64,000 nt of DNA from Vicinamibacteria bacterium (GCA_965116805.1 OZ220713.1:532942-596941), one strand, 5' to 3'. Positions 33,464 through 55,938 are shown, counted from the stretch's first letter. Program-made: numbers and translations. The notes: a model not told the origin generated them from the letters alone.

Positions 33464-33534
33464 GTGCACGTTCGCTTCGACTTTTCCACAATTCGCGCGG
33501 GAACGGGAAGAAATGGGTCGGATTCTCGTCTAGG
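33464..33534 (+). promoter_or_regulatory. Conserved leader element, copy 1 (DnaA-box-like plus ECF-like promoter)
   Basis: GTGCACGTTCGCTTCGAC-TTTTCCACA-N15-GGAAG-N16-CGTCTAG; four other copies in the window. Confidence 0.7.
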
Positions 33535-33586
33535 GAAGTAGAGGGGGACGCCGGGTCTTTCTCTCCATTCACCGGAGGAGCGTTCG

Positions 33587-34135
33587 ATGCCCACCCAGCC
33601 CCCGCCGCAACCCTCGGCCCCCGAGCTGTCCGCCAAGCCGGCCCAACCGTCGGTGGACGCGTCGCCTTCCGGTCCGGACGCCGCTGCGAAACCGGTCCAG
33701 GAGGGAGCGCTTTTCCATCTGCTCGTGGAGCGCGGGTGGGATGCGGCGCTTGCGTATACTGCGGATCAACGAATACACGCCATGACTTCGGAGATTGCTG
33801 CCGCCGGCCTCAAGCCGGTGTTGGCAGAACTCGCGCGGATCCGCGAAACCATGGCCGGCTTTGCCACCAAGAAGGAACTCCAGACCGAACTCCGGCAGAT
33901 CCGCGAGAGCATGGTCACCAAAACGGATCTGGCCGATTTCGTCACCAGGGAGGACCTGAAGGCGACCCTGGCCGACTTCCCCACCAAGGCGGACCTGCGG
34001 CATGAACTCGCGGAGTTCCGGACGGATCTGCGGCGTGTACTCGCGGAGCGCGAGACGCGGCTCGTCAAGTGGGTGTTCGGGGCGCTGCTGGCGCAGACGG
34101 CGGTCATCGTCGGATTGGTGACGCTGCTGAGGTAG
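33587..34135 (+). CDS. Membrane-anchored coiled-coil protein, DUF1640/CCDC90-like
   Basis: Pro-rich N-terminus, repeated (F/M)(A/V/P)T(K/R)xDL beta-layer-type motifs, C-terminal LVKWVFG...TM; RBS GGAGGAG. Confidence 0.8.
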   Translation: MPTQPPPQPSAPELSAKPAQPSVDASPSGPDAAAKPVQEGALFHLLVERGWDAALAYTADQRIHAMTSEIAAAGLKPVLAELARIRETMAGFATKKELQTELRQIRESMVTKTDLADFVTREDLKATLADFPTKADLRHELAEFRTDLRRVLAERETRLVKWVFGALLAQTAVIVGLVTLLR

Positions 34136-34262
34136 CTGCCTCCGCCCGCCTCCGGCGAGCTTTGCCGGCTGAATGAAGCCGGCCCAGTTCTTCCGGTGGG
34201 GGGGAGCGGGGTGCGTTTCGCGGCCTGCGGCCGCGATGCCGGCCGGAGGCCGGCGCTCCGAG

Positions 34263-34580
34263 CGGACGCGCCGACCTGGCCGGGACGCCGCGAAACCGGC
34301 TCGGGAAGAGACGCTTTTCCAGCCGCTCGTGGAGAGCGGATGGGACCCGAGGCTCGCCTATACTGCGAACCAGCGGATACACGCCATGACTTCGGAGATT
34401 GCTGCCGCCGGCCTCAAGCCAGTGCTGGCGGAACTCGCGCGGATCCGCGAGAGCATGGTCACCAAGACGGATCTGCGGCGTGAGCTCGCTGAGCGCGAGA
34501 CGCGGCTCGTCAAGTGGGTGTTCGGGGCGATGCTGGCGCAGACGGCGGTGATCGTCGGATTGGTGACGCTGCTGAGGTAG
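34263..34580 (+). pseudogene. 5'-truncated, repeat-collapsed tandem duplicate of 33587..34135 (possible short CDS from ATG 34386)
   Basis: Near-identical sequence lacking the leader, the start and the internal ATK repeats; begins right after a REP. Confidence 0.7.
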
Positions 34581-34712
34581 ACGCCTCCGCCCGGCTGCGG
34601 CGGGCTTTGCCGGCTGGAGCCGGCCCGGTTCTTCCGGTGTGGAGGGGGCGGCGTGCGTTTCGCGGCCTGCGGCCGCGATGCCGGCCGGAGGCCGGCGCTC
34701 CGAGCTCCGAGC

Positions 34713-36014
34713 CTAGTGACCCTTGTGGCCGAGCGGACCCCGGGCGGAGCTGCGCTTCGCGCCGCCCTCGTCGTCGTCGGCCTCGGCGGCGTTGCCGCGC
34801 AGGATGGCGGGCACGTCCACTCCGGTGGAGGTCTTCAACTGCTCGAGGAAGGCGGCGATGGACCCGGTGAGGCCGCGCACGTGGTTCGGGACCGCGCCGC
34901 CGGTGCCGTTGTCCACCACGGTGAGCCGTTCCACGTGGAGGTTGTCGTGGAGCACGTGGGTGACCTTGTCGATGATCTGCGGGAGCATCTGCAGCAGCAT
35001 GATTTCCCGCGTGGTGTCGTCGTCCCACTGCGCCTTGATCTCGGCGAGGGCATCGGCGGTGGCCTTGCCGTTCTCGCGGATCCGGGAGGCCTCGCCCTGG
35101 GAGGTCAGCGCCCGGGCCTGGCTGGAAGCCTCGGCCGGCACCACCGTGTTGGCCTTCTCGCGAAGCTCGTTCCGCGCCACGCGGATCTCTTCGAGCTTGC
35201 GCTCTTCCTCGATCCGGGCCATGCGCTTCGCCACCTCGGCGACCTGTTCGGCCTGGTTCGACGCCGCGGCCCGCTCGGCCCGCCGCATCCGCACGCCGTG
35301 CTCGGCGTCCACGATGGCCTCTTCGGCGCTGGTCTCCGCGACCACCGCATCACGCTTCGCGTTCGCGGCCACGTCGCGCGCCTCGGCGTCCGCCCGGGCC
35401 TCGGCGACCTTGGCGTCCCGGCGGACGGCCGCGCTGCGCTTGCGGCCGATGGCGTCGAGGTAGCCCTCGGTGTCGGACAGGTGCTGGATCTTGAAGGTGT
35501 CCAGCACGAGGCCGAGCTGCGAGAAGTCCTGCCGCACCGCTTCCGACACCGCATCGCCGACGCCCAGCCGCTCGGCGTTCGCCTCCTCGGGAGTCCGGGT
35601 GGCGATGACGCCGCGCAGGCTGCCTTCGAGCGTCTGCTTCGCGACGGTCTGGATCTCGTGCTGGGTCCGGCCGAGGAAACGCTCCACCGCCTGGTCGAGG
35701 CCGCCCTCCGGATCGCCGGCGATCTTCACGGTCGCCATGCCGTCCACGTCCAGCGGGATCATCCCCGCCGACAGCGCCTTCTTGACCGTGACCTCGATGG
35801 GAATGGTGTTCAGGGAGATGCGGGACACCGTCTCGATGAGCGGACGGCGGAAACCGCGGCCGCCCCGGATGATGCGATAGCCCTTCTTCCGTCCCGAGAA
35901 GATCACCGCCTCGTTGGGGGCGCAGACCACCACGTGCGCGCGGATGAAGATGATGATCGCCAAGATCCCGACGATCGCGAGAGAAAGGGCGATTCCAATG
36001 GTTCCTGGAGTCAT
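34713..36014 (-). CDS. Flotillin/SPFH domain protein
   Basis: N-terminal TM, PNEAVIFSGR, AVERFLG, TLEGSLRGVIA, EGYLDAIGR, Ala/Glu coiled coil. Confidence 0.9.
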   Translation of the reverse strand: MTPGTIGIALSLAIVGILAIIIFIRAHVVVCAPNEAVIFSGRKKGYRIIRGGRGFRRPLIETVSRISLNTIPIEVTVKKALSAGMIPLDVDGMATVKIAGDPEGGLDQAVERFLGRTQHEIQTVAKQTLEGSLRGVIATRTPEEANAERLGVGDAVSEAVRQDFSQLGLVLDTFKIQHLSDTEGYLDAIGRKRSAAVRRDAKVAEARADAEARDVAANAKRDAVVAETSAEEAIVDAEHGVRMRRAERAAASNQAEQVAEVAKRMARIEEERKLEEIRVARNELREKANTVVPAEASSQARALTSQGEASRIRENGKATADALAEIKAQWDDDTTREIMLLQMLPQIIDKVTHVLHDNLHVERLTVVDNGTGGAVPNHVRGLTGSIAAFLEQLKTSTGVDVPAILRGNAAEADDDEGGAKRSSARGPLGHKGH

Positions 36015-36065
36015 GAAAGGGCCTCCGTGGCCGCTGGCCGGACGCTTTGCAAGCCGCTCCGAGAA

Positions 36066-37481
36066 TCAGCAGTCATAGTAGAGAGCGAACTCCGCGGGAT
36101 GGGGTCGCTGGTCCATGTAGGCGAGTTCGTTGGCCCGCTTGTAGCGGATCCAGGTATCGATGACATCGTGCGTGAAGACGTCGCCCCGCAGCAGGTACTC
36201 GTGGTCCTCCTCCAGCGCGTTGAGCGCCGCCTTGAGCGTCGGCGGGGTGTCGCCAATCTTCCGCAGTTCCGCTTCGGGCAGTTCGTAGAGGTCCTGGTCC
36301 ACCGGATCGGGAGGAACGATCCGGTTCGTGATGCCGTCGACCCCCGCCATCATGATGGCCGAGAAGGCCAGGTACGGGTTCGCGCTCGGGTCGGGACAGC
36401 GGAACTCGATCCGCTTGGCCCCCGGGGCGGCCGAATACATCGGGATCCGCACCGCGGCGGAGCGGTTGCTCCGGGAATAGACGAGCTTGTTCGGAGCTTC
36501 GAAGCCGGGGACGAGGCGCCGGTAGGAGTTGGCGGTGGGGCAGGTGAAGGCGCACAGCGACGACGCGTGCTTCAGGATGCCGCCGATGAAGAAGACCCCC
36601 GCCTCGCTGAGGCCGGCGTAGCCGTCCGGGTCGTAGAAGAGGTTCTTCCCCTTGCGCCACAGGCTCATGTGGCAGTGCATTCCCGAACCGTTGTCGCCGA
36701 AGAGAGGCTTCGGCATGAAGGTCGCGGTCCGGCCGTGCCGGTTGGCGGTGTTCTTGACGATGTACTTGAACTTCATCATTGAGTCCGCCATCTGGCTGAT
36801 CGTCGTGTACTTGATCCCGATCTCGCACTGGCCGCCGCTGCCCACTTCCTGGTGGTGGAGTTCGGCATCCACCCCGCAGTCGCGCAGGTTGGTGAGCATC
36901 TGCGAGCGCACGTCCTGGTAGGGATCCGTCGGGGGCATCCGGAAGTAGCCCTGCTTGAGTCCCGGCTTGTGGCCGAGGTTCGGCTTCTCGACCCGTCCGA
37001 CGTTCCAGGCGCCGATCCCGGAGTCCACGTAGTAGAAGGCCTCGTTCACCGTCTGGTCGAAGCGGACGTCGTCGAAGATGTAGAACTCGGCTTCGGGGCC
37101 GACGTAGCAGGTGTCGGCGAGCGCCGAGGTCTCGAGGAACCGGGTGGCCTTCTCGACGATGTTCCGCGGGTCGCGCGAATAGAGACTGAGGTCCACCGGG
37201 TCCTTGACGTTGCAGATGAAGACCAGGGTGGGCTCCTCGTAGAAGGGATCGATGAAGCCGCTGTCCGGATCGGGGCGGAGCAGCATGTCGCTCCGCTCGA
37301 TGCCCTGGAAGCCCCGGACCGAGGAACCGTCGAAGCCGATGCCGTGGACGAACATGTCCTCGTCGAAGGCCTCGATGGCGTAGGAGATGTGGCGCCAGCC
37401 GCCGAGGAGGTCCGTGAACCGGAAGTCCACGAACCGGATCTTGCGGTCCTGGATGACGCGGCGGACGTCGCGAAGAGACAT
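36066..37481 (-). CDS. glnA: Type I glutamine synthetase
   Basis: FDGSS, HHQEV, TFMPKPLFGDNGSGMHCH, NSYRRLVPGFEAP, NRSAAVRIP, DLY. Confidence 0.97.
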   Translation of the reverse strand: MSLRDVRRVIQDRKIRFVDFRFTDLLGGWRHISYAIEAFDEDMFVHGIGFDGSSVRGFQGIERSDMLLRPDPDSGFIDPFYEEPTLVFICNVKDPVDLSLYSRDPRNIVEKATRFLETSALADTCYVGPEAEFYIFDDVRFDQTVNEAFYYVDSGIGAWNVGRVEKPNLGHKPGLKQGYFRMPPTDPYQDVRSQMLTNLRDCGVDAELHHQEVGSGGQCEIGIKYTTISQMADSMMKFKYIVKNTANRHGRTATFMPKPLFGDNGSGMHCHMSLWRKGKNLFYDPDGYAGLSEAGVFFIGGILKHASSLCAFTCPTANSYRRLVPGFEAPNKLVYSRSNRSAAVRIPMYSAAPGAKRIEFRCPDPSANPYLAFSAIMMAGVDGITNRIVPPDPVDQDLYELPEAELRKIGDTPPTLKAALNALEEDHEYLLRGDVFTHDVIDTWIRYKRANELAYMDQRPHPAEFALYYDC

Positions 37482-37488
37482 GGAGCCG

Positions 37489-37830
37489 CTAGCCGATGGC
37501 CTGCGAGCCGCGCTCGCCGGTCCGGATCCGGATGCAGTCGTGGAGGTCGGTGACGAAGATCTTCCCGTCCCCCGCCTGTCCGGTCTGCGCCGCCCTGAGG
37601 ATCGCCTGGACCGCGCGCTCCACGAAGTCCTCGTTCACGGCGACGTCGATGCGGACGCGCTTCAGGATGTTCACCTGCGTCTGGACCCCGCGGAAGGTGG
37701 CCTGGTACCCCTTCTGGGTTCCGTGGCCGACGCCCGCGGTGATCGAGAACTTGTTGATCTGCGCTCCGAAGAGTTCCTCCTGGACCAGGGGAACCACCTC
37801 GGGTTGAACCATGGCGGTGACTAGCTTCAT
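37489..37830 (-). CDS. glnK: P-II family nitrogen regulator
   Basis: MKLVTAMVQP, TGQAGDGKIFV, IRIRTGERG; adjacent to amtB. Confidence 0.92.
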   Translation of the reverse strand: MKLVTAMVQPEVVPLVQEELFGAQINKFSITAGVGHGTQKGYQATFRGVQTQVNILKRVRIDVAVNEDFVERAVQAILRAAQTGQAGDGKIFVTDLHDCIRIRTGERGSQAIG

Positions 37831-37858
37831 GTCGTGACAGCCTCGAAGGAAGTTCCCC

Positions 37859-41997: not shown

Positions 41998-42003
41998 GGA
42001 AGG

Positions 42004-42145: not shown

Positions 42146-42222
42146 CCGCCACCAACGCCAGATGGCCGCGCACGGCGCTCCCAGCCGGGGACACCATCAC
42201 CGCTCCTAACCCACCCGCGGAA

Positions 42223-42293
42223 GTGCACATTCGCTTCGACTTTTCCACAAAACCCTCCGAAGCGGGAAGAAACGGGGCCGAATTCCGTCTAGG
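42223..42293 (+). promoter_or_regulatory. Conserved leader element, copy 2
   Basis: GTGCACATTCGCTTCGAC-TTTTCCACA-N15-GGAAG-N16-CGTCTAG. Confidence 0.7.
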
Positions 42294-42343
42294 AAAGTAG
42301 AGGAGGACACCGCGTCCTCCGACGCTTCCCCCAGGAGTTCCCG

Positions 42344-42886
42344 ATGCCCTCCCAGCCCGCCCCGGCGCCCGCCCCCGAACCTACGCCGAAGCCGGCCCCC
42401 CCACCCGCCGACGCTCCGCCACCCGTCCCGGACGGCGCCCCACCCGAACCTCCCGAGGAAGGCGCCATCTTCCACGCCTTGCTCGACGCGGGGGTCGAGG
42501 CGAAGCTCGCCTATACTGCGGAAAAGCGAATGCACACCATGACTTCCGAGACCGTCGCCGCGCACACGCAGCCGATCCTGGAGGAAGTCAGCCAGCTCAC
42601 CATGCAGGTTCGCGACCTCGCCGAGATGGTCCGCGGCCTCACCGAGCAGGTTCGCGACCTCGCCGAGACCGTCGCCGAGAACCACCGCACGGTCACCGCC
42701 GATATCCAGGCGCTCAAGGAGGCCGAAGCCGAACAGGATCGCAAGTTGGATGAGCTTGCCAAGGCCGTCGCCACGCACGACCGCAAGCTGGACGTGCTGT
42801 CAGCCCAGATGCGGCTGGTGACAGGCGCGCTCGGCCTCCTGATCACCGCCCTCATCGCGGTCTTCGGCATCCTGTTCACAAGGTAG
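42344..42886 (+). CDS. Membrane-anchored coiled-coil protein, paralog of 33587
   Basis: Pro-rich N-terminus, shared head EGAIFHALLDAG...LAYTAEKRMHTMTSE, heptad stalk, C-terminal TM. Confidence 0.8.
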   Translation: MPSQPAPAPAPEPTPKPAPPPADAPPPVPDGAPPEPPEEGAIFHALLDAGVEAKLAYTAEKRMHTMTSETVAAHTQPILEEVSQLTMQVRDLAEMVRGLTEQVRDLAETVAENHRTVTADIQALKEAEAEQDRKLDELAKAVATHDRKLDVLSAQMRLVTGALGLLITALIAVFGILFTR

Positions 42887-43285
<399 letters not shown>

Positions 43286-43449
43286 GGCTGACGGCGCACG
43301 CGGAATGCCCGGCCGGCGCGCCATCCCCGGACCGCCCGGTGGCACGCCCGGCTTGGAACGCCGGTCTCCAGACCGGCACGCGCGGCGCTCCGCGCCGCGC
43401 ACGGCGCAACCTCATTCACCGTCACAGCACCCACGCCGGAGATTTCCTG

Positions 43450-44560
43450 GCTCCGGTCGATATCCAGGGCCGGCGGGCGGAGCCTTAGGCCGATAACGCC
43501 CAGCTCCGGTCGATATCCGGGGCCGGCGGGCGGAGCCTTAGGTCGATAACGCCAAGCTCCGGTCGATATCCGGGGCCGGCGGGCGGAGCCTTAGGTCGAT
43601 AACGCTGAGCTCCGGTCGATGTCCAAGGCCGGCGGGATGGAGCCTTAGGTCGATAACCCGAGCTCCGGTCGATATCCGGGGTCGGCGGGTTGGAGCCTTA
43701 GGTCGATAACGCCGAGTTCCGGTCGATATCCGGGGTCGGCGGGTTGGAGCCTTAGGTCGATAACGCCGAGTTCCGGTCGATATCCAGCGCCGGCGGACGG
43801 AGCCTTAGGTCGATAACGCCGAACTCCGGTCGATATCTAGGGCCGGCGGGCGGAGCCTTGGGTCGATAACGCCGAACTCCAGTCGATATCCAGGGCCGGC
43901 GGGCGAAGCCTTAGGTCGATATCGCCCAGCTCCGGTGGATATCCGAGCCCGGCGGACAGAAGCTCCGGTCGATAACGCCGAGCTCCGGTCGATATCGAGG
44001 GCCGGCGAGTGCAGGCTCCGGTCGATAACGCCAAGCTCCGCTCCCTTCGCCTCGCGGCCGCCCGGCCGGAAGCAGCCCTCCCTTCAAGGAACACCAGTGC
44101 GCAAAAGTTGGTGTCTCCCAAACTGCGTACAAGTTCGTGTCTCTTGACCATAACGCCGAGCTTGGGTCGATATCGGGGACCAGCGGATGGAAGCTCCGGT
44201 CGATATCCAGGGCCGGCGGGCGGAGCCTTAGGTCGATATCGCCTACCTCCGGTCGATATCCGGGGTCGGCAGGCTCGAGCCTTAGGTCGATATCGCCCAT
44301 TTCCGGTCGATATCCAGGGCCGGCGGGCGAAGCCTTAGGTCGATATCGCCCAGCTCCGGTCGATATCCGAGCCCGGCGGACAGAAGCTCCGGTCGATAAC
44401 GCCGAGCTCCGGTCGATATCCGAGGTCGGCGGGCGGAGCCTTAGGTCGATAACGCCAAGCTCCGGTCGATATCCGAGGTCGGCGGACGAAAGCTCCGGTC
44501 GATATCGCCAACCTCCGGTCGATATCCGAGGTCGGCGGACGAAAGCTCCGGTCGATGACA
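43450..44560. repeat. Non-coding tandem array of about 19 imperfect 53-bp units in two blocks (43450-44040 and 44146-44560)
   Basis: Consensus approximately GCTCCGGTCGATATCCRGGGCCGGCGGGCGGAGCCTTAGGTCGATAACGCCGA; GGTCGATA cores alternate 33 and 20 bp apart. Confidence 0.93.
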
Positions 44561-44587
44561 GCGGTCGGTGAGCGCCGCCGAGCCGCG

Positions 44588-46216: not shown

Positions 46217-46247
46217 CGGCGGCAGGTGTTCCCGATGCCGCCGCCGC

Positions 46248-46336: not shown

Positions 46337-46575
46337 ACTGGTCGGGTGTCCCGAGGCGCACCGCGCCGCGTGTGGCTTTGAGCCCTCACGGTGCGGCGGC
46401 TCGGAGCGCCGACCTCTGGTCGGCATCGCCGAGCGCAGCGAGGCAAAACCGCACACCCCCAGGGAGCCGACCGCGGCTCTCACGTCCCCATCGCGCGGTG
46501 CCATCAACACGGGTTGTGCGCTCCCGGGCGATGCTGGCTTGAAGCCGGCGCTCCCCTACGGCCGCCACCGCCCTT

Positions 46576-46646
46576 ACGCACCTTTGCTTCGACTTTTCCA
46601 CATTCCGGCCCCGGGCGGGAAGAAACGGGCCCGAATTCCGTCTAGG
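46576..46646 (+). promoter_or_regulatory. Conserved leader element, copy 3 (orphan, no downstream gene)
   Basis: GCACCTTTGCTTCGAC-TTTTCCACA-N15-GGAAG-N16-CGTCTAG, followed by lower-GC DNA. Confidence 0.65.
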
Positions 46647-46712
46647 GAATGCCCGAGAGCCAATACTGACTCTGTAGCCTGGGTTGATGCCTGGGGATTC
46701 GTAGCTCGCCAC

Positions 46713-47135
46713 TTAAGTCACTAGCTTGTCTTTGTCTTCTGCCTTCAGGATTAGGCTGAACAACTCGCCGACCTCTAGTTCCGAATCGTCGTAACCGAGA
46801 TCGCGCCGCATCTCGCGAACGATGCTGTCGAACGCCCTGAGAACGTCCGGCCCACCCTCTCCTGCGCTCTTCTCCATGTGATTCCACGCCCTGATGACTC
46901 CAGCACTTGCGAAGAGCATCAGTTCGCGCTTGTGTCCCATGATCTTGGCGATATCTCGTGCGGGTATCTCGCTTCGTCCTGAAGCAGAATTCCGACTGAC
47001 AATCTCCATGTAGTCATTGATCGCCTTTCCGTAGACTCGGCGTTTTTCCGGATACAAGCGGCTTTCGATTTCCCTGGCCCTAATCTGATTTTGCTGATGC
47101 CATGCGGCCACCAAGCCACCGAATAATCCCTTCAT
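46713..47135 (-). CDS. Hypothetical protein, lower GC, possibly 5'-truncated
   Basis: 140-aa helical ORF with atypical codon usage downstream of the tmRNA. Confidence 0.65.
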   Translation of the reverse strand: MKGLFGGLVAAWHQQNQIRAREIESRLYPEKRRVYGKAINDYMEIVSRNSASGRSEIPARDIAKIMGHKRELMLFASAGVIRAWNHMEKSAGEGGPDVLRAFDSIVREMRRDLGYDDSELEVGELFSLILKAEDKDKLVT

Positions 47136-47481
47136 GGCTCTCTTTTCCCTTTCGGCTCATCCCTTCTGGGGGAATCCCCGTTAAGACAATAGCCCACTCC
47201 CTTTCCGACTGGAGCCCCCCGTCACCGTGCGGCGGCGCTTGCCGCGCTCTTCGTGGATGACACAGTACGTCGCCATCGTGGCAGTTCCCCTATCGACAAA
47301 GTAAGGGACCAGAAACGGATGTGCCCCTGCCGACAGTTCTCCGCTCTTTCCGGCTGCCCTCGATTGCCGTTACCTCGCCAGACAACTAACAGTGCAAGCG
47401 TCGACTCGTCAACGAAGCGCGGTACTTTCGAGTTGCAACGGTTCTCGCGGAACAGCAGAGAGCAACCAAACTCAGGCCACT

Positions 47482-47852
47482 TGGTGGAGGCGGCGGGAAT
47501 CGAACCCGCGTCCGAAAGCCTTCGACAACGACGTCTACATGCATATCCGGGTTGTGGCGGGAACCCGCGCCCGGAGGCGCCTTTCCCTGCTTCGGCCCCG
47601 CGGCGCATCAACCCGGCGAATCGCGCCGTAGGACCTATCCCTGAGTCTCACCGGCGGCTCGGGAGGACCGCCAGCCAAGCCCGCCTAGTCGACGTCCTTT
47701 CCCGCCCGGCAGGCGTGGTCAGGAAGGACGTGGCTTATGCAGCCAGTGCCAGATCAGTGTTGGCGTTTGTTGTGTTTCCACCGTTTACGGGAGATGGACC
47801 CCCGACATGCAGTCGTTGCTTCATGTACCTTCGTCGAACCCAGTACGCCCCC
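47482..47852 (-). ncRNA. ssrA: tmRNA; tag peptide (A)ANTDLALAA at 47764-47735
   Basis: 5' GGGGGCGTACTGGGTTCGAC; 3' GACGCGGGTTCGATTCCCGCCGCCTCCACCA; internal ORF ending LAA-stop. Confidence 0.96.
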
Positions 47853-48204
47853 TCCTCGCGCGAGTCAAGGCGGCAATTCCGGGGCCGAAAACCGGCCCCG
47901 TATCCCGGTGGGGACAGTTGCCCCGCACTCAGGACCGCGTCGCGAATCGGCTACGATTGTAGCAGCCTGTGATGAGGTCGCGCGGCAGCCAACCGGCGGT
48001 GGATTTCCGGCGGGAGCGGCTCTCCGGTGGGGGGGATGCTGGTGAGCGGATTGGCTTGGGGAGCGTGCTGGGGATGAGAGAGGTGGCGCTATCGGGGCGG
48101 GTTTCGCGGTTGTGCGCGATGGTGGCCGGGGGGCGGCGTTCCGAGGCGGGGGTGCCGTCTCCGCTGGTTGGCTCCGCGCCGAGGCCGGAGCCACCTGGTT
48201 CCGG

Positions 48205-48635
48205 GTGGGGTTACGACGTGCGCGGCGCGGAGCGCCGCGGGTGCCGGTCTGAAGACCGGCGGTCCCGGGCGGGGGTGCTACGGCGGCGATCTGGAGGTTG
48301 GTGGTTCTTGGGTTCGCGGGATGGGGGTGAGGAGGTGGACGTGGTTTCGCCCGCTGCGCGGGCGATGCCGGCCGGAGGCCGGCGCTCCGAGGGGGTGGCG
48401 TCCGGGCGGTCTGGGGGTTGGATATTCCTGCGTTCGCGCGATCGGGGTGAGCAGACATACGCGACTTCGCCCGCCGGGGGCGGGCTGTGCCGGCTGAAGC
48501 CGGCGTTCCAAGCCGGGGGGGCGGTGCCCGCTGGGCGGGCTTCCGGGAGGTGGGCGGCGTGAGGTTGGGTGGAGTTACGACGTGCGCGGCGCGGGGCGCC
48601 GCGCGTGCCGGTCTGAAGACCGGCGGTCCCGGGCG
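48205..48635. repeat. BIME-like mosaic of four REP hairpins with about 120-bp periodicity
   Basis: Hairpins near 48243, 48367, 48488 and 48606; spacer 48291-48331 repeated at 48411-48451. Confidence 0.75.
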
Positions 48636-50847
48636 GGGGTGGCGTGCCGCTCTTGCTGGTGGGGCCTTCGTTGTTCTTGTGGCGATCCCGCTGGGGGCAG
48701 CGGAGGAGTTCTCGGGGATTCCTTGGGAGGCGCTGGAGGAGTTGCCGGATGGGCTGGCGGCGGTGCGGCGGGCGGCGATGGTCGAGTCGCGGGCGGACCG
48801 GCGGGAGGCGTTGGAGGCGATTGCTGATGATGGCGCGGTGTCGGCGCGGGCGCGGGCCGCGGCTTCGTACCGGTTGGGGGCGGATGCGTTGCGGCGGGGG
48901 CGGTGGACGGAGGCGGAGGAGCGGCTGACGGCGCCGGTGCTGACCGACAGCCAGTTGGCGGCGGATGCGTTGCACATCCTGGGGAGGAGCTTGCCGGGGG
49001 TGCGGCGGAGCGACGGGATTGCGCTGCTGCGGCGGGTGGTGGAGGAGTTTCCGGAGTATGGGGACCGGGACCGGCTTCGGTTCGACCTGGGGCGGCGGCT
49101 GGCGCGGGCGGGGGAACGGGAGGAGGCGCTGGTCCATCTGGATGCGGCCGCCGAGGGTGGCTTCACGCTAAGAGGGGAGGCGTTGGCGGCGAAGGCGGCG
49201 GCACTCGAACGGATGGGGCGGCGGGAGGAGGCCGCGCGGACGCTCGAGGTCCTGTACTACGACATGCCGACGCATGGGGAGTCGCTGCCGGCGGGGCGGC
49301 AGCTCTCGAAGCTGTACAAGCGGCGGGACGTCGCGAACCCCTCGGACGCCGAGAAGTACCCGCGGGCGATGCGGCGGGCGGCGGGGTTCGCGCGGGCCGG
49401 GAACCACCGGAAGGCGCACGAGAACTACCTGGAGGTCGCGCGGCGCTTCGCCTCGGCGGCGGACAGCGAGCTGGTGCGGCTGCGGATCGGGGTGGCGGAG
49501 CACCACCGGCGCCGGCTGAGCGCGTCGCTGCGGACCCTGGCGCGGATCAAGCGGCCGGACCTCCTGCCGGAGGCGCTCTACTACCGCGGGGAGTCGCTGC
49601 GGCGGCTGGAGCGGCGGACGACCCAGCAGCGGGTGCTCGAGGAGCTGCTCGGCCTCGAACAGGAACACCCGTTCGGGGAGCGGGCGCTCTACAGCATGGC
49701 GCGCGCGCAGTTGGCGAAGAACGACCGGGTGGCCGCGCTGCCGTATCTGGCGCGGCTGGCGGAGGCGTATCCGACCGGGCAGCACGGGCTGTTCGCCCGC
49801 TGGCACGTGCTCTGGGACCGGTACCGCAACGACGACCTGGACGGGACGGCCGAGGAGTTCGAGCGGGCGGCGCGGGAGAACCCCGGCGACTTCATGGCCG
49901 GCCAGTTCCTGTACTTCGCGGGCCGGTCACGGGAGCGGACGGGGGACCCGGAGGGCGCGGCGGACCTCTACCGGGAGGTCTTCGTCGGCTATCAGCACTC
50001 CTACTACGGGCGGATGGCCGCGGAGCGCCTCGAGGAGATGGGCGGGGAGGAAGCCCTCGTCAACCCGCTGAGCGAGCCGCACCGGCTCCTCGAGCGGTTC
50101 CGGGTGCAGCGGACGGCGGAGGCGGCGCGCGTCGAGGAGCTCTACGCCGCCGGCTACGGCGAGCGGGCCCGGGATGCGGCGCTGGCCGCCGCCCGGCGCG
50201 GACTGCCCGACGACCCGGCGTTCGAGGCGATGCGCGCCTGGCTGCTCGCCGACGACAACAAGGCGGTCCAGGCCATCCAGGCGCTCCGGCGCGCCGCGCC
50301 GTTCCACACCTCCGCCGCCGGGGAGGCCCTGCCCGACGCCTGGTGGCGCATCCTCTACCCGCTGCGCTTCGAGGAGCGGATCCTGGAGCGCTCCGAGCAG
50401 TGGGACCTCGACCCCTACTGGGTCGCGTCGCTCATCCGGCAGGAGTCGGTGTTCGTCCCCCGCACCCGGTCGCCGGTGGGGGCGCGCGGGCTGATGCAGG
50501 TCATGCCGGCGACCGGCCGGGCGCTCGCCCGGCTCGAAGGGGTCAGCTACCGCACCTCGCGGCTCTACGACCCCGGGGTGAGCATCCGCTTCGGGACGCG
50601 CTACCTGCGGCAGCTCCTCGACCGGTTCGCGAGCCGCCCGGAGCTGGCGCTCGCCGGCTACAACGCCGGCCCGCACCGGGTGCGGGACTGGACCGACATG
50701 AACATGAAGATCCCCGCCGAGGTGTTCATCGAGGAGATCCCGTTCACCGAGACGCGCAACTACGTGAAGCTCATCCTGCGGAACGAGAAGATCTACCGCC
50801 GGCTCTACCCCGAACTCGGCAACGCGAAAGCGAAGGCCAACCAGTGA
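48559..50847 (+). CDS. slt: Soluble lytic transglycosylase (Slt70-like) with TPR repeats (start uncertain)
   Basis: SLIRQES.F, SPVGARGLMQVMP.T, ALAGYNAGP, EEIPFTETRNYVK. Confidence 0.9.
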   Translation: MRLGGVTTCAARGAARAGLKTGGPGRGWRAALAGGAFVVLVAIPLGAAEEFSGIPWEALEELPDGLAAVRRAAMVESRADRREALEAIADDGAVSARARAAASYRLGADALRRGRWTEAEERLTAPVLTDSQLAADALHILGRSLPGVRRSDGIALLRRVVEEFPEYGDRDRLRFDLGRRLARAGEREEALVHLDAAAEGGFTLRGEALAAKAAALERMGRREEAARTLEVLYYDMPTHGESLPAGRQLSKLYKRRDVANPSDAEKYPRAMRRAAGFARAGNHRKAHENYLEVARRFASAADSELVRLRIGVAEHHRRRLSASLRTLARIKRPDLLPEALYYRGESLRRLERRTTQQRVLEELLGLEQEHPFGERALYSMARAQLAKNDRVAALPYLARLAEAYPTGQHGLFARWHVLWDRYRNDDLDGTAEEFERAARENPGDFMAGQFLYFAGRSRERTGDPEGAADLYREVFVGYQHSYYGRMAAERLEEMGGEEALVNPLSEPHRLLERFRVQRTAEAARVEELYAAGYGERARDAALAAARRGLPDDPAFEAMRAWLLADDNKAVQAIQALRRAAPFHTSAAGEALPDAWWRILYPLRFEERILERSEQWDLDPYWVASLIRQESVFVPRTRSPVGARGLMQVMPATGRALARLEGVSYRTSRLYDPGVSIRFGTRYLRQLLDRFASRPELALAGYNAGPHRVRDWTDMNMKIPAEVFIEEIPFTETRNYVKLILRNEKIYRRLYPELGNAKAKANQ

Positions 50848-52019
50848 GCGAAACGCTGGCGGCGCGGCGCCGCGGCAGCCGGAAGGCCGCGCAGTTCACC
50901 GAGTCGGTGATCCGGGAGATGACCCGGCTCTCGATGCAGTACGGCGGCGTGAACCTCGCCCAGGGGTTTCCGGACTTCCCGGCCCCCGCCGAGATCAAGG
51001 AAGCGGCCGTCGAGGCCATCCGGCGAGACATCAACCAGTACGCCATCACCTGGGGCGCCAAGTCGCTGCGCGACGCGCTCGCCGAGCGCTACCGGGCGCT
51101 CTACGGCATGGACGTGGACCCCGAGCGCAACTTCACGGTGGCCTGCGGCTCGACCGAGGCCATGATCGCCACGATGCTGGCGGTGGTGGATCCGGGCGAG
51201 GAGGTCATCGTCTTCGAGCCGTTCTACGAGAACTACGGGCCGGACACCATCCTCTCGGGAGCGGTGCCCCGCTACGTCCGCCTCCACGAGCCGGACTGGA
51301 CCTTCGACGAGGACGAGCTGCGCGCCGCCGTCAACGAGCGCACCCGGGCGATCATCGTGAACTCGCCCCAGAACCCGAGCGGGAAGGTGTTCGGCGAGGC
51401 GGAGCTGTCGCGGATCGCGGCGCTCTGCACCGAGCACGACCTGATCGCCTTCACCGACGAGATCTACGAGTTCATCACCTACGACGGCGCCCGGCACATC
51501 CCGATCGCGACGCTGCCGGGGATGGCGGACCGGACGGTGACCATCAGCGGGCTGTCCAAGTCGTACTCGGTCACCGGCTGGCGGGTCGGCTGGACGGTAG
51601 CCAGCGAGGACCTGAGCGCCGCGATCCGCAAGGTGCACGACTTTCTGACGGTGGGCGCGGCCGCTCCCTTGCAGGAGGCGGGGGCGGCGGCCCTGCGGCT
51701 GCCCGAGAGCTACTACGAAGAACTGCGGACGGGATATGAAGAGCGGCGCGACCTCATGGTGGCCGGTCTGACCGAGGTCGGCTTCCGATGTTTCGAGCCC
51801 GGCGGCGCCTACTACGTGATGACGGACATCTCGGACTTCGGCTTCCCGGACGACGTGGCCTTCGCCGAGCACCTAGTGAAGACGGTGGGGGTGGCCGCGG
51901 TGCCGGGGTCGAGCTTCTACGCCGACCCCGCGGCGGGCAGCCAGCGGCTCCGGTTCACCTTCTGCAAGAACCGGGAAACGCTCGTGGAGGCGGTCGAGCG
52001 GCTCCGGCGACTCCGTTGA
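50844..52019 (+). CDS. PLP-dependent aminotransferase class I/II
   Basis: NLAQGFPDF, NSPQNPSGKVF, DEIYE, SGLSKSYSVTGWRVGW. Confidence 0.93.
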   Translation: MSETLAARRRGSRKAAQFTESVIREMTRLSMQYGGVNLAQGFPDFPAPAEIKEAAVEAIRRDINQYAITWGAKSLRDALAERYRALYGMDVDPERNFTVACGSTEAMIATMLAVVDPGEEVIVFEPFYENYGPDTILSGAVPRYVRLHEPDWTFDEDELRAAVNERTRAIIVNSPQNPSGKVFGEAELSRIAALCTEHDLIAFTDEIYEFITYDGARHIPIATLPGMADRTVTISGLSKSYSVTGWRVGWTVASEDLSAAIRKVHDFLTVGAAAPLQEAGAAALRLPESYYEELRTGYEERRDLMVAGLTEVGFRCFEPGGAYYVMTDISDFGFPDDVAFAEHLVKTVGVAAVPGSSFYADPAAGSQRLRFTFCKNRETLVEAVERLRRLR

Positions 52020-54043
52020 GCCCTCGGGGCGCCGCGGCGTTGGTCGCGGTGTGGGTGGTGGGGGCGTCCGCCTGGGCGCAGCCGCCGGGTTCGGCGGAGC
52101 ACGCGGAGGCGCGGCGGCTGCTGGGGAGCGGCGATGGGGAGGCGGCGCTGGAGAGCGCGTTTGCGGCGGTCACGGGCTCCGACGCGTTCGAGCCGACGGA
52201 CTGGAGCCAGGAGATCCCAGAGGGGCGGATCGTCCTGGACGAGTTCACCGGGGCCGCGAATGCCGCGTACCGGCTGGCGCGGGCGGCGTACCGGGTGACG
52301 CTGGGGGATGCGCTGGCCGCTACGGGGGACGCCGTGGGGGCGGCGCGGGAGTACCGGCGGGCGATTGCGCTCGATCCGCGAGCGGAGACGTGGCGCCGGC
52401 TGGCGGATCTTCCGGGGATCCCGCTGTCCGGGCGGGTCGATGCGCTGCTGCGGTCGTGGGCGCGTTCGGGGGGATCGGATCCGGAAGCGTTGGAGTTGTT
52501 GCGGGAGACCGGCGCCTTTCGGACCGAGAACGGGCTGGCGGCGGCGCTCGACCGGTTCCGCTTCCGGGCCCCCGAGACCTCGCGGCGGCGGCCGCCGGAG
52601 GGGACGACCCCTTACGACGGGGTCTTCCCGGTTCTGTCGCTGGCCGTCGAGGGGGGCGTCTGGTCGAGCGAGCGCTCGTTCGGGGAGGGCCGGCCGCTCG
52701 TCCTCTACTTCCCAGCGGACGGCTGTCCGCGCTGCGGCGAGGTGCTGGACGAACTGCAGAACGCGCTGCGGGGCCAGCCCGCGGACGTGCTGGCGGCGGT
52801 GTCCGACGCCGACCTCGCCATCCTGACCCGGATCGCCGGGTTGACGGGCGGCGGGTTCTTCATGCCCGAGCCGCAGTCGGCGGCGGCGCGGGCGGGGATC
52901 CGGGAGCGCCCCATCGGGCACGTCGTCCGGCGGGTCACCGTGGGATTCCAGCCTGTTGCGGACACCGGCGGCACCCTCTGGCTGGCGGCGCGGGCGGGGC
53001 TTTCCGTCTGGCGTCTTCCGCTGGGCGGCGGTTCGGTGCGCCGCGACCTGAGCGCGCTGTTCCGGTTCCTCGACAACTCCCCGATCGAGGGCAGCGGCGC
53101 GCCGCTGGTGGAGGTCCCGGACGACGCGGAGGCGATGATCGAGGTTCTGCGGCGCCTCGAGGCCGGCGCCGAACCGGTGCGGGACATCGAGGAACGGCTG
53201 CTGAACGCGGTCCGCACCGGGTTGCGGGGGGCCAGCGATCCGGCGGGGCGCGGGGTGTCACTGCTCCGGGCGGCTTCCGGGCTGGAGGCCGGGGACGCTG
53301 CCCGGCTCGCGCTGCTGGCGCGGATGACGCCCCGCTTCGGGGAGCGTCTGCTGCAGGCGGCGCAGGCGCTGGACGGGGACGTGGTGCGGGCCGTTCCGGG
53401 CGGGCGGCTGCGGGTCGCGGCCGTCGGGGAGTCCTTCGTCATCCAGCGGGACTACGAGGGGGCGGACGGCGCGGCGCTGGTGCTGTCGGCGGTGGTCCGG
53501 CCGGGAGATCCGGGGCAACTCGAGGTGCTCGAGATCGTTCCCGGACGCGCCGGGAACGTGACCGCCCGCGAGGAGGGATTGGTGTTCCTGCGGGAGCGTC
53601 CCGACGGAGAGGCCTGCCTCGCCTGGGGCCCCGCCACCGGCCCCTTCGAGGAGGACTGCACCGCCGATTTCCGTGAGGGCGCGGTGGTCGTCTCCCGGAG
53701 CCAGCTCGCCGGCGGCAACGACGCCGGCGCGCCGGACTACCGGGTCCGGGTGGACGGCGGCCCGGAGCCCGCCGAGGTCGCCGCGCTGACCGAGGGCCTG
53801 GCCGCGTTCGCCGCCGGCGAAGCCGAGGCCGCCGGCGCCGCCTTCACCCGCGCGTCCGGAACCATCGGACCAGGATCCCCACTCGACATGGCGGCCATCC
53901 GCTTCAACCTCGCACTGGTGGCCGAGGCCCGCGGCGACCGCGAGGAAGCCCTCGCCGCCCTCCAGGCCATCGGCGACGCCACGTTCCCGGGCGTACTCGA
54001 AGAAGCGATCCGCCGCCTCTACCGCGCCGGCGAGAATCGCTGA
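52016..54043 (+). CDS. Exported hypothetical protein with TPR-like ends and a central thioredoxin-like CxxC segment
   Basis: Signal peptide, TPR-like helices, PLVLYFPADGCPRC; TTG start overlaps the upstream stop. Confidence 0.65.
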   Translation: MSPRGAAALVAVWVVGASAWAQPPGSAEHAEARRLLGSGDGEAALESAFAAVTGSDAFEPTDWSQEIPEGRIVLDEFTGAANAAYRLARAAYRVTLGDALAATGDAVGAAREYRRAIALDPRAETWRRLADLPGIPLSGRVDALLRSWARSGGSDPEALELLRETGAFRTENGLAAALDRFRFRAPETSRRRPPEGTTPYDGVFPVLSLAVEGGVWSSERSFGEGRPLVLYFPADGCPRCGEVLDELQNALRGQPADVLAAVSDADLAILTRIAGLTGGGFFMPEPQSAAARAGIRERPIGHVVRRVTVGFQPVADTGGTLWLAARAGLSVWRLPLGGGSVRRDLSALFRFLDNSPIEGSGAPLVEVPDDAEAMIEVLRRLEAGAEPVRDIEERLLNAVRTGLRGASDPAGRGVSLLRAASGLEAGDAARLALLARMTPRFGERLLQAAQALDGDVVRAVPGGRLRVAAVGESFVIQRDYEGADGAALVLSAVVRPGDPGQLEVLEIVPGRAGNVTAREEGLVFLRERPDGEACLAWGPATGPFEEDCTADFREGAVVVSRSQLAGGNDAGAPDYRVRVDGGPEPAEVAALTEGLAAFAAGEAEAAGAAFTRASGTIGPGSPLDMAAIRFNLALVAEARGDREEALAALQAIGDATFPGVLEEAIRRLYRAGENR

Positions 54044-54160
54044 TCGCAGAACGGCTTGGAACGCCGGCGGCGCCGCGCGAGCGCTCAGCGGTACGCGGTT
54101 TCGCGGCCTGCGGCCGCGATGCCGGCCGGAGGCCGGCGCTCCGAGCCGACACGCCGGAAT

Positions 54161-54231
54161 GTGCACGTTCGCTTCGACTTTTCCACATTGGCGTCCGAAA
54201 CGGGAAGAAACGGACCGGAATTACGTCTAGG
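54161..54231 (+). promoter_or_regulatory. Conserved leader element, copy 4
   Basis: GTGCACGTTCGCTTCGAC-TTTTCCACA-N15-GGAAG-N16-CGTCTAG. Confidence 0.7.
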
Positions 54232-54349
54232 CAGATAGGGGGAAACAACGGGTTTCCTCCACTGCACATCAGGAGGAGTTCCCGATGCCGAACACCGGCC
54301 ACGTCCCGCCGATCAATCCGCTCTGCGCGTCCGACGGGGGGTTGGTAGC

Positions 54350-54928
54350 ATGACTGCCCCACAGGTTGCAGAAGCAGTGTTCGACAGCCACCGGTTCGTG
54401 AAGCGGCTCACCGAGGCCGGCATGGAGCGAGGGCTGGCCGAGGTCCTGGCCGAAGAGCACATGGGCCCCTGGATCCGAAACGTCGCCACAAAGACGGATG
54501 TCGAGAGCTTCCGGCGCGAAGCAGCCACCAAGGCCGACACGGAGCTGGTTCGGAGGGATCTGGCAGACACCGAAGCGAACATCCGGCGAGACGTCGCCAC
54601 GAAGGCGGACGTGGAGGCGGTCCGGGAGGACCTGGCCAACTTCCGCGCAAACGGCGTCTCCAAGAAGGATCTCGAGGACCTCCGTGCCGACATGGCCTCC
54701 AAGAAGGATCTCGAAGACCTCCGCGCCGACATGGCCTCCAAGGAGGATCTCGAGGACCTACGCACCGACATGGTCTCCAAAGAGGATCTCGCGCACACCG
54801 TGAAGCTGGTCCAGATGGACGTGGAGAAACGGATCGCCGTGCTCCGCGGTGATCTGATCAAGTGGATGTTCGGGGCGCTGATGGCCCAGGCGGCGCTCGT
54901 GGTGGCCATGATCAAGCTGTTCTCGTAG
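54350..54928 (+). CDS. DUF1640/CCDC90 family membrane-anchored coiled-coil protein
   Basis: Head FDSHRFVKRLTEAGM...AEVLAE, ATKxD and MASKxDL 11-aa repeats, LIKWMFG...TM. Confidence 0.87.
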   Translation: MTAPQVAEAVFDSHRFVKRLTEAGMERGLAEVLAEEHMGPWIRNVATKTDVESFRREAATKADTELVRRDLADTEANIRRDVATKADVEAVREDLANFRANGVSKKDLEDLRADMASKKDLEDLRADMASKEDLEDLRTDMVSKEDLAHTVKLVQMDVEKRIAVLRGDLIKWMFGALMAQAALVVAMIKLFS

Positions 54929-54944
54929 GTCGAGAGTTCGGCTT

Positions 54945-55072
54945 CCGCCCGCCTGCGGCGGGCTGTGCCGGCTGAAGCCGGCGTTCCAAGCCGGCGGCGC
55001 CATCCGGGCGCGCAGCGGTACGCGGTTTCGCGGCCTGCGGCCGCGGTGCCGGTCTGAAGACCGGCGGTCCCC
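54945..55072. repeat. REP-like cluster between convergent coiled-coil genes
   Basis: GCCGGCTGAAGCCGGCGTTCCAAG and GCCGGTCTGAAGACCGGCGGTCCC hairpins. Confidence 0.75.
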
Positions 55073-55139
55073 GCCTTACTCCAGGCCCGCCAAGCCCTTC
55101 ACCGACGCGATCAGCTCCCTATCGAGCTGGCAGAGGCAG

Positions 55140-55805
55140 TTAACCGCCGACCAGCGCCGCCACCGCCCGCTCGAACAGCGGGCGAATCAGTCCCCCGGCC
55201 AGAAGCAGGCCGACGGCGCCCAGGACGCCCCAGGCCAGGCGGCGCGTTCCGGAACTCCGTTCCAGGGACTTGTTGGCCAAGGCCGTGAGGTCCAGCAACG
55301 CGTTCTCCAGTCTCTCGAGCCGGACTTCCGCCGCTCCGAACCGTTGGGCGATTCCGGCCTCCAGCTCCTTCGTGCGTTGCTCCGCCCGAGCGTCCACCTC
55401 AGTCAACCGCTCGTTGAACCGGACCTCCAGCTCCTTCGCCCGGCGCTCCGCCCGCGAGTCCACTTCGGTCAACCGCTCGTTGAACCAGACCTCCAGCTCC
55501 TTCGTCCGCTGCTCTGCCCGAGCGTCCACCCGGGCGATGTCGGTCTTGAGTTCCCTGAAGTCCTCGCGGTGCTGCCTCCGGAAATCCCGGAACTCCTCAC
55601 GGTCCTCCTGCCGTTCCGACCGAAGTACCGCGAACTGACCGTGCACGAGGTTGAACCCGTCGGTGAGGTTCCGGTCCAGCGCCCGGATCGCCGCCATTTC
55701 TGCGCTGTTCACGACTTCCTCTTGACCGTTGCCGAGACCAGTATAGGGCCCCTCCACGACGCCGGTGGCGGCGGCGGCAACCGGGTTTTTCTTCGCTTCG
55801 TTCAA
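55140..55805 (-). CDS. Membrane-anchored coiled-coil protein with 22-aa repeats
   Basis: Three copies of VD(A/S)RAE(Q/R)R(T/A)KELE...FNERLTE, C-terminal TM, RBS GGAGG before TTG. Confidence 0.75.
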   Translation of the reverse strand: MNEAKKNPVAAAATGVVEGPYTGLGNGQEEVVNSAEMAAIRALDRNLTDGFNLVHGQFAVLRSERQEDREEFRDFRRQHREDFRELKTDIARVDARAEQRTKELEVWFNERLTEVDSRAERRAKELEVRFNERLTEVDARAEQRTKELEAGIAQRFGAAEVRLERLENALLDLTALANKSLERSSGTRRLAWGVLGAVGLLLAGGLIRPLFERAVAALVGG

Positions 55806-55867
55806 GGCAGTGGTCCCTCCAGGTGGAATAGCGACGACGAGGCGCGCGTGCCCCGTCCCTCACCACC

Positions 55868-55938
55868 TATAGACGCAATTCCGCGTACTTTCTTCCCATC
55901 CGGAGCGCTTTTGTGGAAAAGTCGGTGCGAAGCGGCAC
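55868..55938 (-). promoter_or_regulatory. Conserved leader element, copy 5 (most diverged)
   Basis: Minus strand GTGCCGCTTCGCACCGAC-TTTTCCACA-N15-GGAAG-N16-CGTCTAT. Confidence 0.65.

Follow-up and report, generated by a model that had tools for sequence, protein, structure and literature searches.

The chromosome of a Vicinamibacteria bacterium, which we take to be a sponge-associated member of the Acidobacteriota (the labels of the sequencing runs agree), carries a two-part, promoter-like element of about 75 bp. In it, a DnaA-type box stands at a fixed distance upstream of a -35/-10 pair that resembles the promoters of extracytoplasmic function (ECF) sigma factors. We analysed a 64-kb window of this genome (positions 532,942-596,941 of its single 3,555,437-bp contig; host genome G000, genus g1), where the element occurs five times, and followed it through the genome and through other genera of the family. 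It lies in front of pilus genes, of comM and of many small coiled-coil membrane proteins, and its promoter half is also found before dprA and recA. On balance, and judging from sequence comparison, we favour the reading that these genes form a competence-like regulon, which would be read by an ECF-type sigma factor and co-regulated by DnaA.

Anatomy and distribution of the element

The first-pass annotation of the window had described five recurrences of a leader in which two spacers of variable sequence keep lengths of 15 and 16 nt. Both statements are confirmed: the pattern TTTTCCACA-N15-GGAAG-N16-CGTCTA is matched exactly five times in the window, starting at 33482, 42241, 46594 and 54179 on the plus strand and running from 55920 to 55870 on the minus strand, and is found a mean of 0.00 times in 100 dinucleotide-preserving shuffles. 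Alignment extends the conserved block to about 78 nt, gTGCnCnTTCGCTTCGAC-TTTTCCACA-N14-GGGAAGAAA-N7-GAaTTnCGTCTA, with its upstream edge (gTGCnCnTTCGCTTCGAC) about 24 nt 5' of TTTTCCACA as in the first-pass annotation, and shows that both inner stretches have a fixed length and a variable sequence. The copies are:

33458-33537, plus strand: composite promoter copy 1, with the upstream block gTGCACGTTCGCTTCGAC, a DnaA-type box at 33482-33490, the -35 element GGGAAGAAA (GGAAG at 33506-33510) and the -10 element CGTCTA at 33527-33532
42217-42296, plus strand: composite promoter copy 2 (pattern match, alignment, profile search)
46570-46649, plus strand: composite promoter copy 3 (pattern match), whose cargo is lost
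54155-54234, plus strand: composite promoter copy 4 (pattern match, alignment, profile search)
55865-55944, minus strand: composite promoter copy 5 (pattern match, alignment, profile search)

The window is ordinary 70%-GC (guanine-cytosine) chromosome, with PEPCK, glnA-glnB-amtB and BamA/TamB genes, and is neither phage nor plasmid.

We measured the spacing on 69 copies with a recognisable box from at least 16 genomes (76 pattern matches less seven G000 rows with degenerate boxes, which are noise). GGAAG and CGTC lie 16 nt apart in all 69, in agreement with the ECF-type layout that had been proposed for GGGAAGAAA and CGTCTA. The distance from the box to GGAAG has a little freedom, being 15 nt in 60 copies, 26 nt in five, 16 nt in three and 14 nt in one. 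Copies 1 nt shorter overall, counted as a 15-nt variant of the -35 to -10 spacing, are found in some genomes (for example nine in G010). All five 26-nt cases come from a single orthologous locus, one per species and longer by exactly 11 bases, and the same locus has a spacer of about 25 nt in genera g5 and g7. An insertion of 11 bp corresponds to one helical turn, and its retention across species is expected if a protein bound at the box must face the polymerase.

The whole genome contains 10 exact copies, and an nhmmer profile of the core recovers 20 (19 at E<=2.5e-12, one at 8.5e-5); the next match, at E 0.043, is a site with the promoter half only. When the halves are scanned separately with position weight matrices (PWMs), scores above 30 bits are reached by 21 promoter-half sites and by 19 box-half sites. 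All 19 of the latter coincide with promoter-half sites, indicating that the two halves form one unit. The box half never stands alone; the promoter half does so once among the strong sites, before dprA. The DnaA-type word TTTTCCACA is present in 19 of the 20 copies, the exception being TTCTCCACG at 3258075, while the copy at 3308399 keeps the 9-mer and has lost the 12-nt upstream block.

The element is also genus-wide. Its exact pattern occurs in 14 of the 15 other genomes of the genus and in none of 25 genomes of other genera, with a reversed-pattern control giving 0 everywhere, and a sequence-only covariance model recovers 7-32 copies in each of the 15. Outside the genus, the same model detects the element in g7, g5, g2 and a single g6 genome; simpler patterns place the element in all four g6 genomes, with a diverged -35 and -10, and in g4. 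Across the family, the promoter core is roughly G.GA(A/C)AAA ... CGT.

An element better conserved than its cargo and flanked by hairpin repeats resembling repetitive extragenic palindromes (REP-like) might instead be a structured RNA leader, or a cassette like a miniature inverted-repeat transposable element that spreads with the coiled-coil genes. We consider this extremely improbable. The two variable spacers look complementary by eye, but across 47 distinct copies cognate pairs fold no better than non-cognate ones (-9.21 versus -9.35 kcal/mol, permutation p = 0.64), so the apparent complementarity is compositional. No covariation is seen between columns of the two spacers, Rfam at gathering thresholds reports only a transfer-messenger RNA (tmRNA) and two tRNAs in the window, and whole leaders fold no better than shuffles (z -2.2 to +0.7). 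Across species, the element is found at orthologous positions ahead of the same pilus, comM and dprA genes, which also speaks against a mobile cassette. An argument for RNA is a stem-loop a few nt after CGTCTA in the long-leader class, whose arm sequences differ between copies and which appears in the minimum-free-energy structure of 21 of 21 folded leaders, a count that carries no chance control. Because the short-leader class lacks it, this stem-loop falls outside the shared element, and we regard it as a feature of the 5' untranslated region of the long-leader genes. As far as it is testable, the element is DNA-level promoter architecture and not a structured RNA.

The upstream box, the replication origin and DnaA

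TTTTCCACA fits the DnaA consensus TTWTNCACA, as the first-pass annotation had pointed out. The same word is given as a DnaA box of cyanobacterial origins (PMC4674748) and as a tested box variant in Deinococcus (PMC7988490). G000 contains 26 exact occurrences, of which 19 lie in elements, three at oriC and four elsewhere; about 3.5 would be expected from base composition (hand arithmetic). The origin lies at 735.1-735.3 kb, between dnaA and an adjoining AT-rich stretch, where the three exact boxes are arranged in tandem with 11-bp spacing among several one-mismatch variants. The oriC boxes of two further g1 genomes are the same word. The layout of the dnaA-dnaN spacer is common across the family, and the box words vary by genus:

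g1, oriC boxes: CCACA
g5 and g7, oriC boxes: CCCCA (TTTTCCCCA) plus CCACG
g4, oriC boxes: CGACA and CGACG, read TTTTCGACA, TTTTCGACG or CTTTCGACA
g6, oriC-side boxes: CCCCA or CCCGG, with TTTTCCCCA or TTTCCCGG between dnaA and dnaN

One g6 genome has a putative origin with an architecture unusual for the family: its dnaA-dnaN spacer (G041:C1, L152) holds at least five tandem units of about 65-70 nt with (G/A)TTTCCCGGG.

To compare promoters with origins, the pilM and comM promoters of other genera were located through protein similarity, independently of the box. In g4, TTTTCGACA is present at the usual distance in every one of the three pilM promoters and in the only comM promoter examined. 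Word searches were run equally across all 28 family genomes. TTTTCGACA-N35/36-CGT occurs 4-5 times per genome in all three g4 genomes and is absent from the 22 genomes of g1, g2, g5, g6 and g7, with one unrelated match in g3. TTTTCCACA-N36-CGT is absent from the three g4 genomes and present in all 15 other g1 genomes (3-19 each), 18 times in G000, and in g5, g6 and g7. The third word, TTTTCCCCA-N35/36-CGT, is found in g5, g6 and g7. Within g1 it is confined to four deep-branching species and missing from the remaining 12 genomes, G000 among them. Genera g5 and g7 mix CCACA and CCCCA at the origin and at promoters alike, with TTTTCCCCA in both places.

The recognition motif of DnaA, which aligns with RDHTTV of Mycobacterium, varies as well. 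It reads RRDHST in g1, RRDHSS in g5 and g7, RR(K/N)HST in g4, DHAT in g6 and HHST in g3. Base contacts in E. coli DnaA are made by D433, H434, T435 and H439 (PMC2533591, PMC7561715), and g4 DnaA has K or N at the position of D433. That origin and promoters show the same new word in this genus, and that a contact residue has changed as well, is difficult to account for unless DnaA reads both. This co-change, the match to the consensus and the identity with the oriC 9-mers support the view that the TTTTCCACA block behaves as a DnaA box, as originally suggested.

The fit is nevertheless incomplete. Promoters of g6 mostly carry TTTTCCACA (3-15 per genome) and less often TTTTCCCCA, whereas the oriC-side boxes of this genus are CCCCA or CCCGG, so that co-variation with DnaA holds only in part. 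The conserved upstream block, at 21-23 bp, is also longer than a DnaA box, and a second or different factor may occupy it. These observations suit an explanation in which promoter and regulon are the same and a dedicated activator or an extra sigma domain occupies the upstream block, the resemblance to a DnaA box being coincidence or site sharing. Conservation exceeds the 9-mer by 12 nt (cTTCGCTTCGAC, with TCGnnnCGA), and across genera the TTTTCC half is steadier than the CACA half. We judge this unlikely: it has to accommodate a box identical to the tandem 9-mers of oriC, the joint switch to CGACA in promoters, origin and DnaA contact residue of g4, and the copy at 3308399, where the 9-mer persists without the 12-nt block.

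Boxes that bind DnaA could also serve mainly for its titration, in the manner of datA or the Bacillus box clusters, and so tune initiation, with their position at promoters being secondary. The 19 consensus boxes outside oriC, five of them within 22 kb and about 146-169 kb from the origin, would suit such a role. Titration, however, would require neither that the box keep its distance and helical phase relative to the -35 (15 or 26 nt) nor that a promoter half stand beside every box, and we consider it very unlikely as the main function.

Two further sets of box words were recorded. In G018 and G043, most of 19 further TTTTCGACA sites examined lack promoter-like sequence downstream; by eye, about four have it. 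G008:C1 contains nine identical 47-nt copies beginning with TTTTCCACA (e.g. at 901696, 1216803 and 2129774); they are unrelated to the element and are probably an insertion-sequence end or another repeat.

Downstream genes, the candidate sigma factor and the proposed regulon

In the window, the genes associated with the five copies are as follows:

33587-34135, plus strand: cargo of copy 1 (family F1), 182 aa, with a Pro-rich head, coiled-coil repeats and a C-terminal hydrophobic anchor
34173-34580, plus strand: partial duplicate of the copy 1 cargo, promoter-less
42344-42886, plus strand: cargo of copy 2 (F1b), a 180-aa coiled-coil protein with a C-terminal anchor
42929-43285: Phd/YefM antitoxin gene, after the copy 2 cargo
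54285-54353, plus strand: upstream open reading frame (ORF) at copy 4, 22 codons, with the Shine-Dalgarno sequence and ATGCC start of the family; its TGA shares bases with the ATG of the main gene (ATGA)
54350-54928, plus strand: cargo of copy 4, 192 aa, with repeated KxDLEDLRxDM units and a C-terminal anchor
55140-55805, minus strand: cargo of copy 5 (F3), a 221-aa coiled-coil protein with a hydrophobic C-terminal segment and a TTG start

The first-pass annotation had placed four copies 53-65 bp before a ribosome-binding site and start codon. From the end of CGTCTA to the start codon, the distance is 54, 52 and 64 nt at copies 1, 2 and 5. Copy 4 opens the upstream ORF instead, its orthologous loci elsewhere having the same long leader of 192-193 nt, and copy 3 is geneless: similarity ends just past ATGCC at 46687 and gives way to lower-GC DNA with a minus-strand ORF. 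The four window proteins look by inspection like coiled coils with a hydrophobic C terminus, in line with the earlier description. Their membership of DUF1640/CCDC90 is not supported. Only the copy 4 protein touches PF07798 (CCDC90-like/DUF1640; E 4.1e-6, 27.2 bits), below the gathering cut-off of 33.5, and the proteins of copies 1, 2 and 5 have no match to this family in Pfam. An NCBIfam scan gave nothing above cut-offs, and for two of the coiled-coil proteins the ESM Atlas returned hypothetical clusters only, with leads at 0.88-0.89 as regards DUF1640.

Across the genome, small coiled-coil membrane proteins are encoded behind 12 of the 21 strong sites. They belong to no fewer than three unrelated architectures: tail-anchored proteins with a Pro-rich head; tail-anchored proteins with KxDLxxLR repeats, whose window member is the weakly CCDC90-like one; and bitopic proteins whose coiled coil is C-terminal and whose leader is short (21 nt). 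A regulon of coiled-coil genes, as first proposed, is too narrow a description, since its core consists of pilus genes and comM. The sites in G000 include:

pilB site: T2SSE (E 3e-121) plus MshEN
pilM-pilN-pilO-secretin site
minor-pilin site: prepilin-type operon with PilY1
comM site: Mg-chelatase-type helicase (Mg_chelatase E 8e-81)
RHH-PIN pair site
191-aa protein site (unk191): faint Hjc-like match
geneless site: copy 3 of the window
dprA-topA site: promoter half only (dprA E 7.5e-72)

recA has a weaker, box-less site of the same geometry (GGGACAGAA-N-CTACGTCT, 13.9 bits). At 14 bits or more there are 30 sites on both strands of G000, compared with 2 in a reversed control of one strand.

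Two loci of this set have peculiarities of their own. The G000 copy with the 11-bp longer spacer (G000:C1:2872231-2872316; L040:204-289) is oriented antisense into an rsmD-type methyltransferase gene and is followed after about 720 nt by a family-less 405-aa ORF. It has orthologues in L085-L088, L111 and L125, and the antisense arrangement, kept in at least five species and two other genera, may yield an antisense transcript or a long leader. The pilB ORF (G000:C1:2304857-2308042; L037:8722-11907, minus strand) is open for 1061 codons, with T2SSE ending at residue 612. Its tail resembles translated antisense or low-complexity sequence, and could reflect a missing stop, an assembly frameshift or chance at 70% GC.

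The same targets recur in relatives. We assigned downstream genes by tblastn for 53 distinct stretches, and obtained coiled-coil families for 28, minor pilins for seven (including g5 and g7), pilB for five, and pilM, comM and unk191 for three each; one had RHH and three had none. The comM copy is conserved in g1, g4 and g5; this comM query had no match in the g6 genomes G041 and G020, which is uninformative for that genus. The dprA promoter is alignable across 15 genomes of the genus. In G019 (g5), four of eight promoters are box-less, and one strong box-less promoter drives recA (E 1.9e-132). We conclude from these comparisons that pilus genes, comM, dprA and recA are the conserved core and the coiled-coil genes the variable, expanding part, which looks like a lineage-specific expansion added to the pilus/comM core.

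Some 12 nt 5' of the dprA -35, 15 genomes share the word G(G/C)GAAAAC, which is TTTTC(C/G)C inverted (L076:1100-1135). We considered this inverted, TTTTCCCC-like word as a DnaA box and rejected it: it is conserved, yet misfits the consensus.

Taken together, the observations suggest the following mechanism. An ECF-type alternative sigma would recognise the -35 GGGAAGAAA, the 16-nt spacer with its T-rich stretch and the -10 CGTCTA. DnaA would bind TCGnnnCGAC plus TTTTCCACA, a site whose centre falls near -57 for a transcription start immediately past CGTCTA. It would help or license the sigma-RNA polymerase from one face of the helix, in a presumably activating rather than repressing role. At box-less promoters (dprA, recA and half of those in G019) the sigma alone would suffice. 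The full element would control pilB, pilM-N-O-secretin, minor pilins with PilY1 and comM as a core, together with the coiled-coil swarm and a few toxin-antitoxin and nuclease-like genes. Pilus-based DNA uptake and branch migration by comM would thereby be coupled to the replication state reported by DnaA. Of the first-pass interpretation, a regulon with a two-part promoter is supported; it is genome-wide and genus-wide, with a cargo wider than the coiled-coil family.

The case for competence is that the pilus machine shares its promoter with the cytoplasmic processing genes comM, dprA and recA, as in competence regulons. Several observations weigh against it. comEC and comEA are present in G000 and lack the motif (best upstream PWM score about -11, with only the directly upstream sequence scored), and the pilT-pilC-pilin cluster has no clear site, pilT scoring a weak 9.9 or 13.7 bits with two PWMs. 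By number, most targets are proteins without a known function. Type IV pili also serve adhesion and motility. Contigs from RNA libraries (three RNA-library runs and one other run, contigs only) span the promoter itself; RNA-library depth follows the DNA run, and its peaks stem from multi-copy repeats. The sigma factor raises further difficulties. The motif precedes none of the 10 sigma-70-family genes of G000, counting strong and weaker PWM matches (the genome has some eight sigmas of ECF type), and an ECF/anti-sigma pair at 1501 kb is parted from the copy at 1499161 by a convergent gene and so is not co-transcribed with it.

The missing sites at comEC and comEA, the many membrane coiled coils and the versatility of type IV pili could all be accounted for by a cell-surface programme, in which pili for adhesion or motility in the sponge host are expressed with membrane coiled coils and DNA uptake plays no part. 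We hold this to be somewhat unlikely, since comM, dprA and recA act on cytoplasmic DNA and carry the same -35/-10, and the comM copy is kept in three genera. Two further groups of genes in G000 lack the motif: a second T2SSF gene and two prepilin genes (G000:C1:1388517-1390602) just upstream of the promoter copy at 1387619, and a prepilin gene directly after comEA (1634372-1634951). TfoX_N was not found in this genome.

The window itself offers one candidate for the sigma factor:

19141-19842, plus strand: divergent ECF-type sigma, candidate only, single copy (TIGR02937, E 6.2e-11, 42.2 bits against a cut-off of 42.9)

This gene is found in 27 of the 28 family genomes, with and without a detectable element, and is therefore non-discriminating; its phylogenetic profile was rejected as a link to the promoter, as its identity tracks kinship. 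A PDB sequence search with it returned nothing useful. A lone TTTTCCACA at 18531, 5' of the sigma operon, was also set aside. It falls in the first codons of a minus-strand proteasome-type gene (17912-18538), and its variants in four of six genomes (TCTTCC, TTCTCC) are Lys-to-Lys or Lys-to-Arg codon changes, so that it provides no evidence for a link between DnaA and the sigma. Readings of the element as a sigma-54, sigma-28/FliA, SigH or CRP-S site were compared by hand with the general consensus sequences and dropped, because the spacing misfits or the elements fall in variable stretches.

A stronger form of the competence-like reading is possible, though we regard it as doubtful. Here, DnaA would be an obligate co-activator of an ECF "competence sigma", so that pilus, comM and coiled-coil genes would be on only when free DnaA is high (e.g. 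when replication is stalled or re-initiating), while dprA and recA would require the sigma only. With the Asp-to-Lys/Asn change in g4, oriC and all regulon boxes would then have changed together (CCACA to CGACA). If true, this would exemplify, in nature, the co-evolution of an essential initiator with an entire regulon.

The remaining features of the window concern repeats around the copies:

54082-54146, no strand assigned: REP-like double-hairpin repeat, GCGGCCTGCGGCCGC..GCCGGCCGGAGGCCGGC, directly 5' of copy 4
33389-33443, 34199-34263, 34641-34705, 48328-48392 and 55978-56042: REP-like relatives

REP-like repeat zones also occupy 48203-48642, 54052-54146, 54946-55057 and 55948-56050, bracketing the cassettes. 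Each repeat consists of two GC-rich hairpins, GCGGCCTGCGGCCGC and GCCGGC(C/T)(G/T)GA(A/G)GCCGGC, and their multi-copy state in the metagenome runs leads to depth spikes and false joints. The tmRNA gene (47482-47852, minus strand, 153.9 bits) lies beyond the truncated copy 3. Within 46690-47852, the DNA between the tmRNA 3' end and this copy has a lower GC content (62%) and holds a family-less minus-strand ORF of 140 aa (46713-47135). It resembles an island or insertion at the usual ssrA hotspot, and its arrival may have cost copy 3 its cargo. Finally, positions 43319-44574, between the Phd/YefM antitoxin gene and a Fic-like gene, hold about 24 tandem units, repeated every 53 bp (sub-spacing 20+33) and built around the word TCCGGTCGATA(T/A)C. 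It looks like a set of iteron- or centromere-type binding sites; a clustered regularly interspaced short palindromic repeat (CRISPR) array was rejected, as the inter-repeat units are themselves repeated.

Significance and comparison with known systems

The control of natural transformation is known in detail for few phyla, and the known routes from replication stress to competence in other bacteria are indirect. Competence regulons under alternative sigma factors (ComX, SigH) and DnaA as a transcription factor are both already known. In the literature searched, we found no description of an ECF sigma or a DnaA box controlling competence genes, or of the two combined, and no account of competence control in Acidobacteriota. 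If our reading is true, the promoter word marks a competence-like regulon in an uncultured family of sponge symbionts and gives several function-less families of small, membrane-anchored coiled-coil proteins a regulatory context. It would also provide a direct link from the replication initiator to DNA uptake and recombination, and a set of naturally occurring DnaA variants whose box specificity has shifted (CCACA, CCCCA, CGACA). The arrangement suggests that DNA uptake may be tied to the replication state of the chromosome.

Among the closest parallels are the competence regulons of Firmicutes (the ComX/SigX cin-box of streptococci and the SigH type). These share with the present set a dedicated alternative sigma (here putative) with a distinctive promoter word, pilus-type uptake genes, dprA, recA and many role-less small co-regulated genes. 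Our comparison uses the general cin-box and SigH consensus sequences; a SigH-type competence factor is exemplified by that of Lactobacillus sakei (PMC3364868). The present regulon differs in belonging to Acidobacteriota, in its ECF-like word GGGAAGAAA-N12/13-TTnCGTCTA, in the upstream box of most members, and in that comEA and comEC are not found behind the motif.

The promoter half resembles ECF promoters (RpoE, SigW, EcfG; consensus GGAAC-N16/17-CGTC) in its GGAA-type -35, its CGTC -10 and a nearly invariant 16-nt spacer. In contrast to these, it is not accompanied by an autoregulated sigma/anti-sigma operon with the motif, has an A-run/T-run after the -35 and carries an upstream site of activator type.

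As regards DnaA as a transcription factor, well-known cases are E. coli dnaA and nrdAB and the DnaA regulon of B. subtilis. Shared features are consensus boxes in promoters outside oriC and the possibility that the state of DnaA reports on replication. The binding data for B. subtilis (ChAP-chip, chromatin affinity precipitation on arrays; PMC2533591) and for E. coli (PMC11317965) serve as reference. Known targets are replication and nucleotide genes, whereas here they are pilus and recombination genes, with a single phased box 5' of an alternative-sigma -35 at about 20 promoters per genome.

Finally, the cyanobacterial origins share TTTTCCACA as oriC box and the position of oriC beside dnaA/dnaN (PMC4674748). 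The difference lies in the acidobacterial family studied here, within which the box shifts between CCACA, CCCCA and CGACA, in part along with substitutions in the DHTT motif of DnaA.

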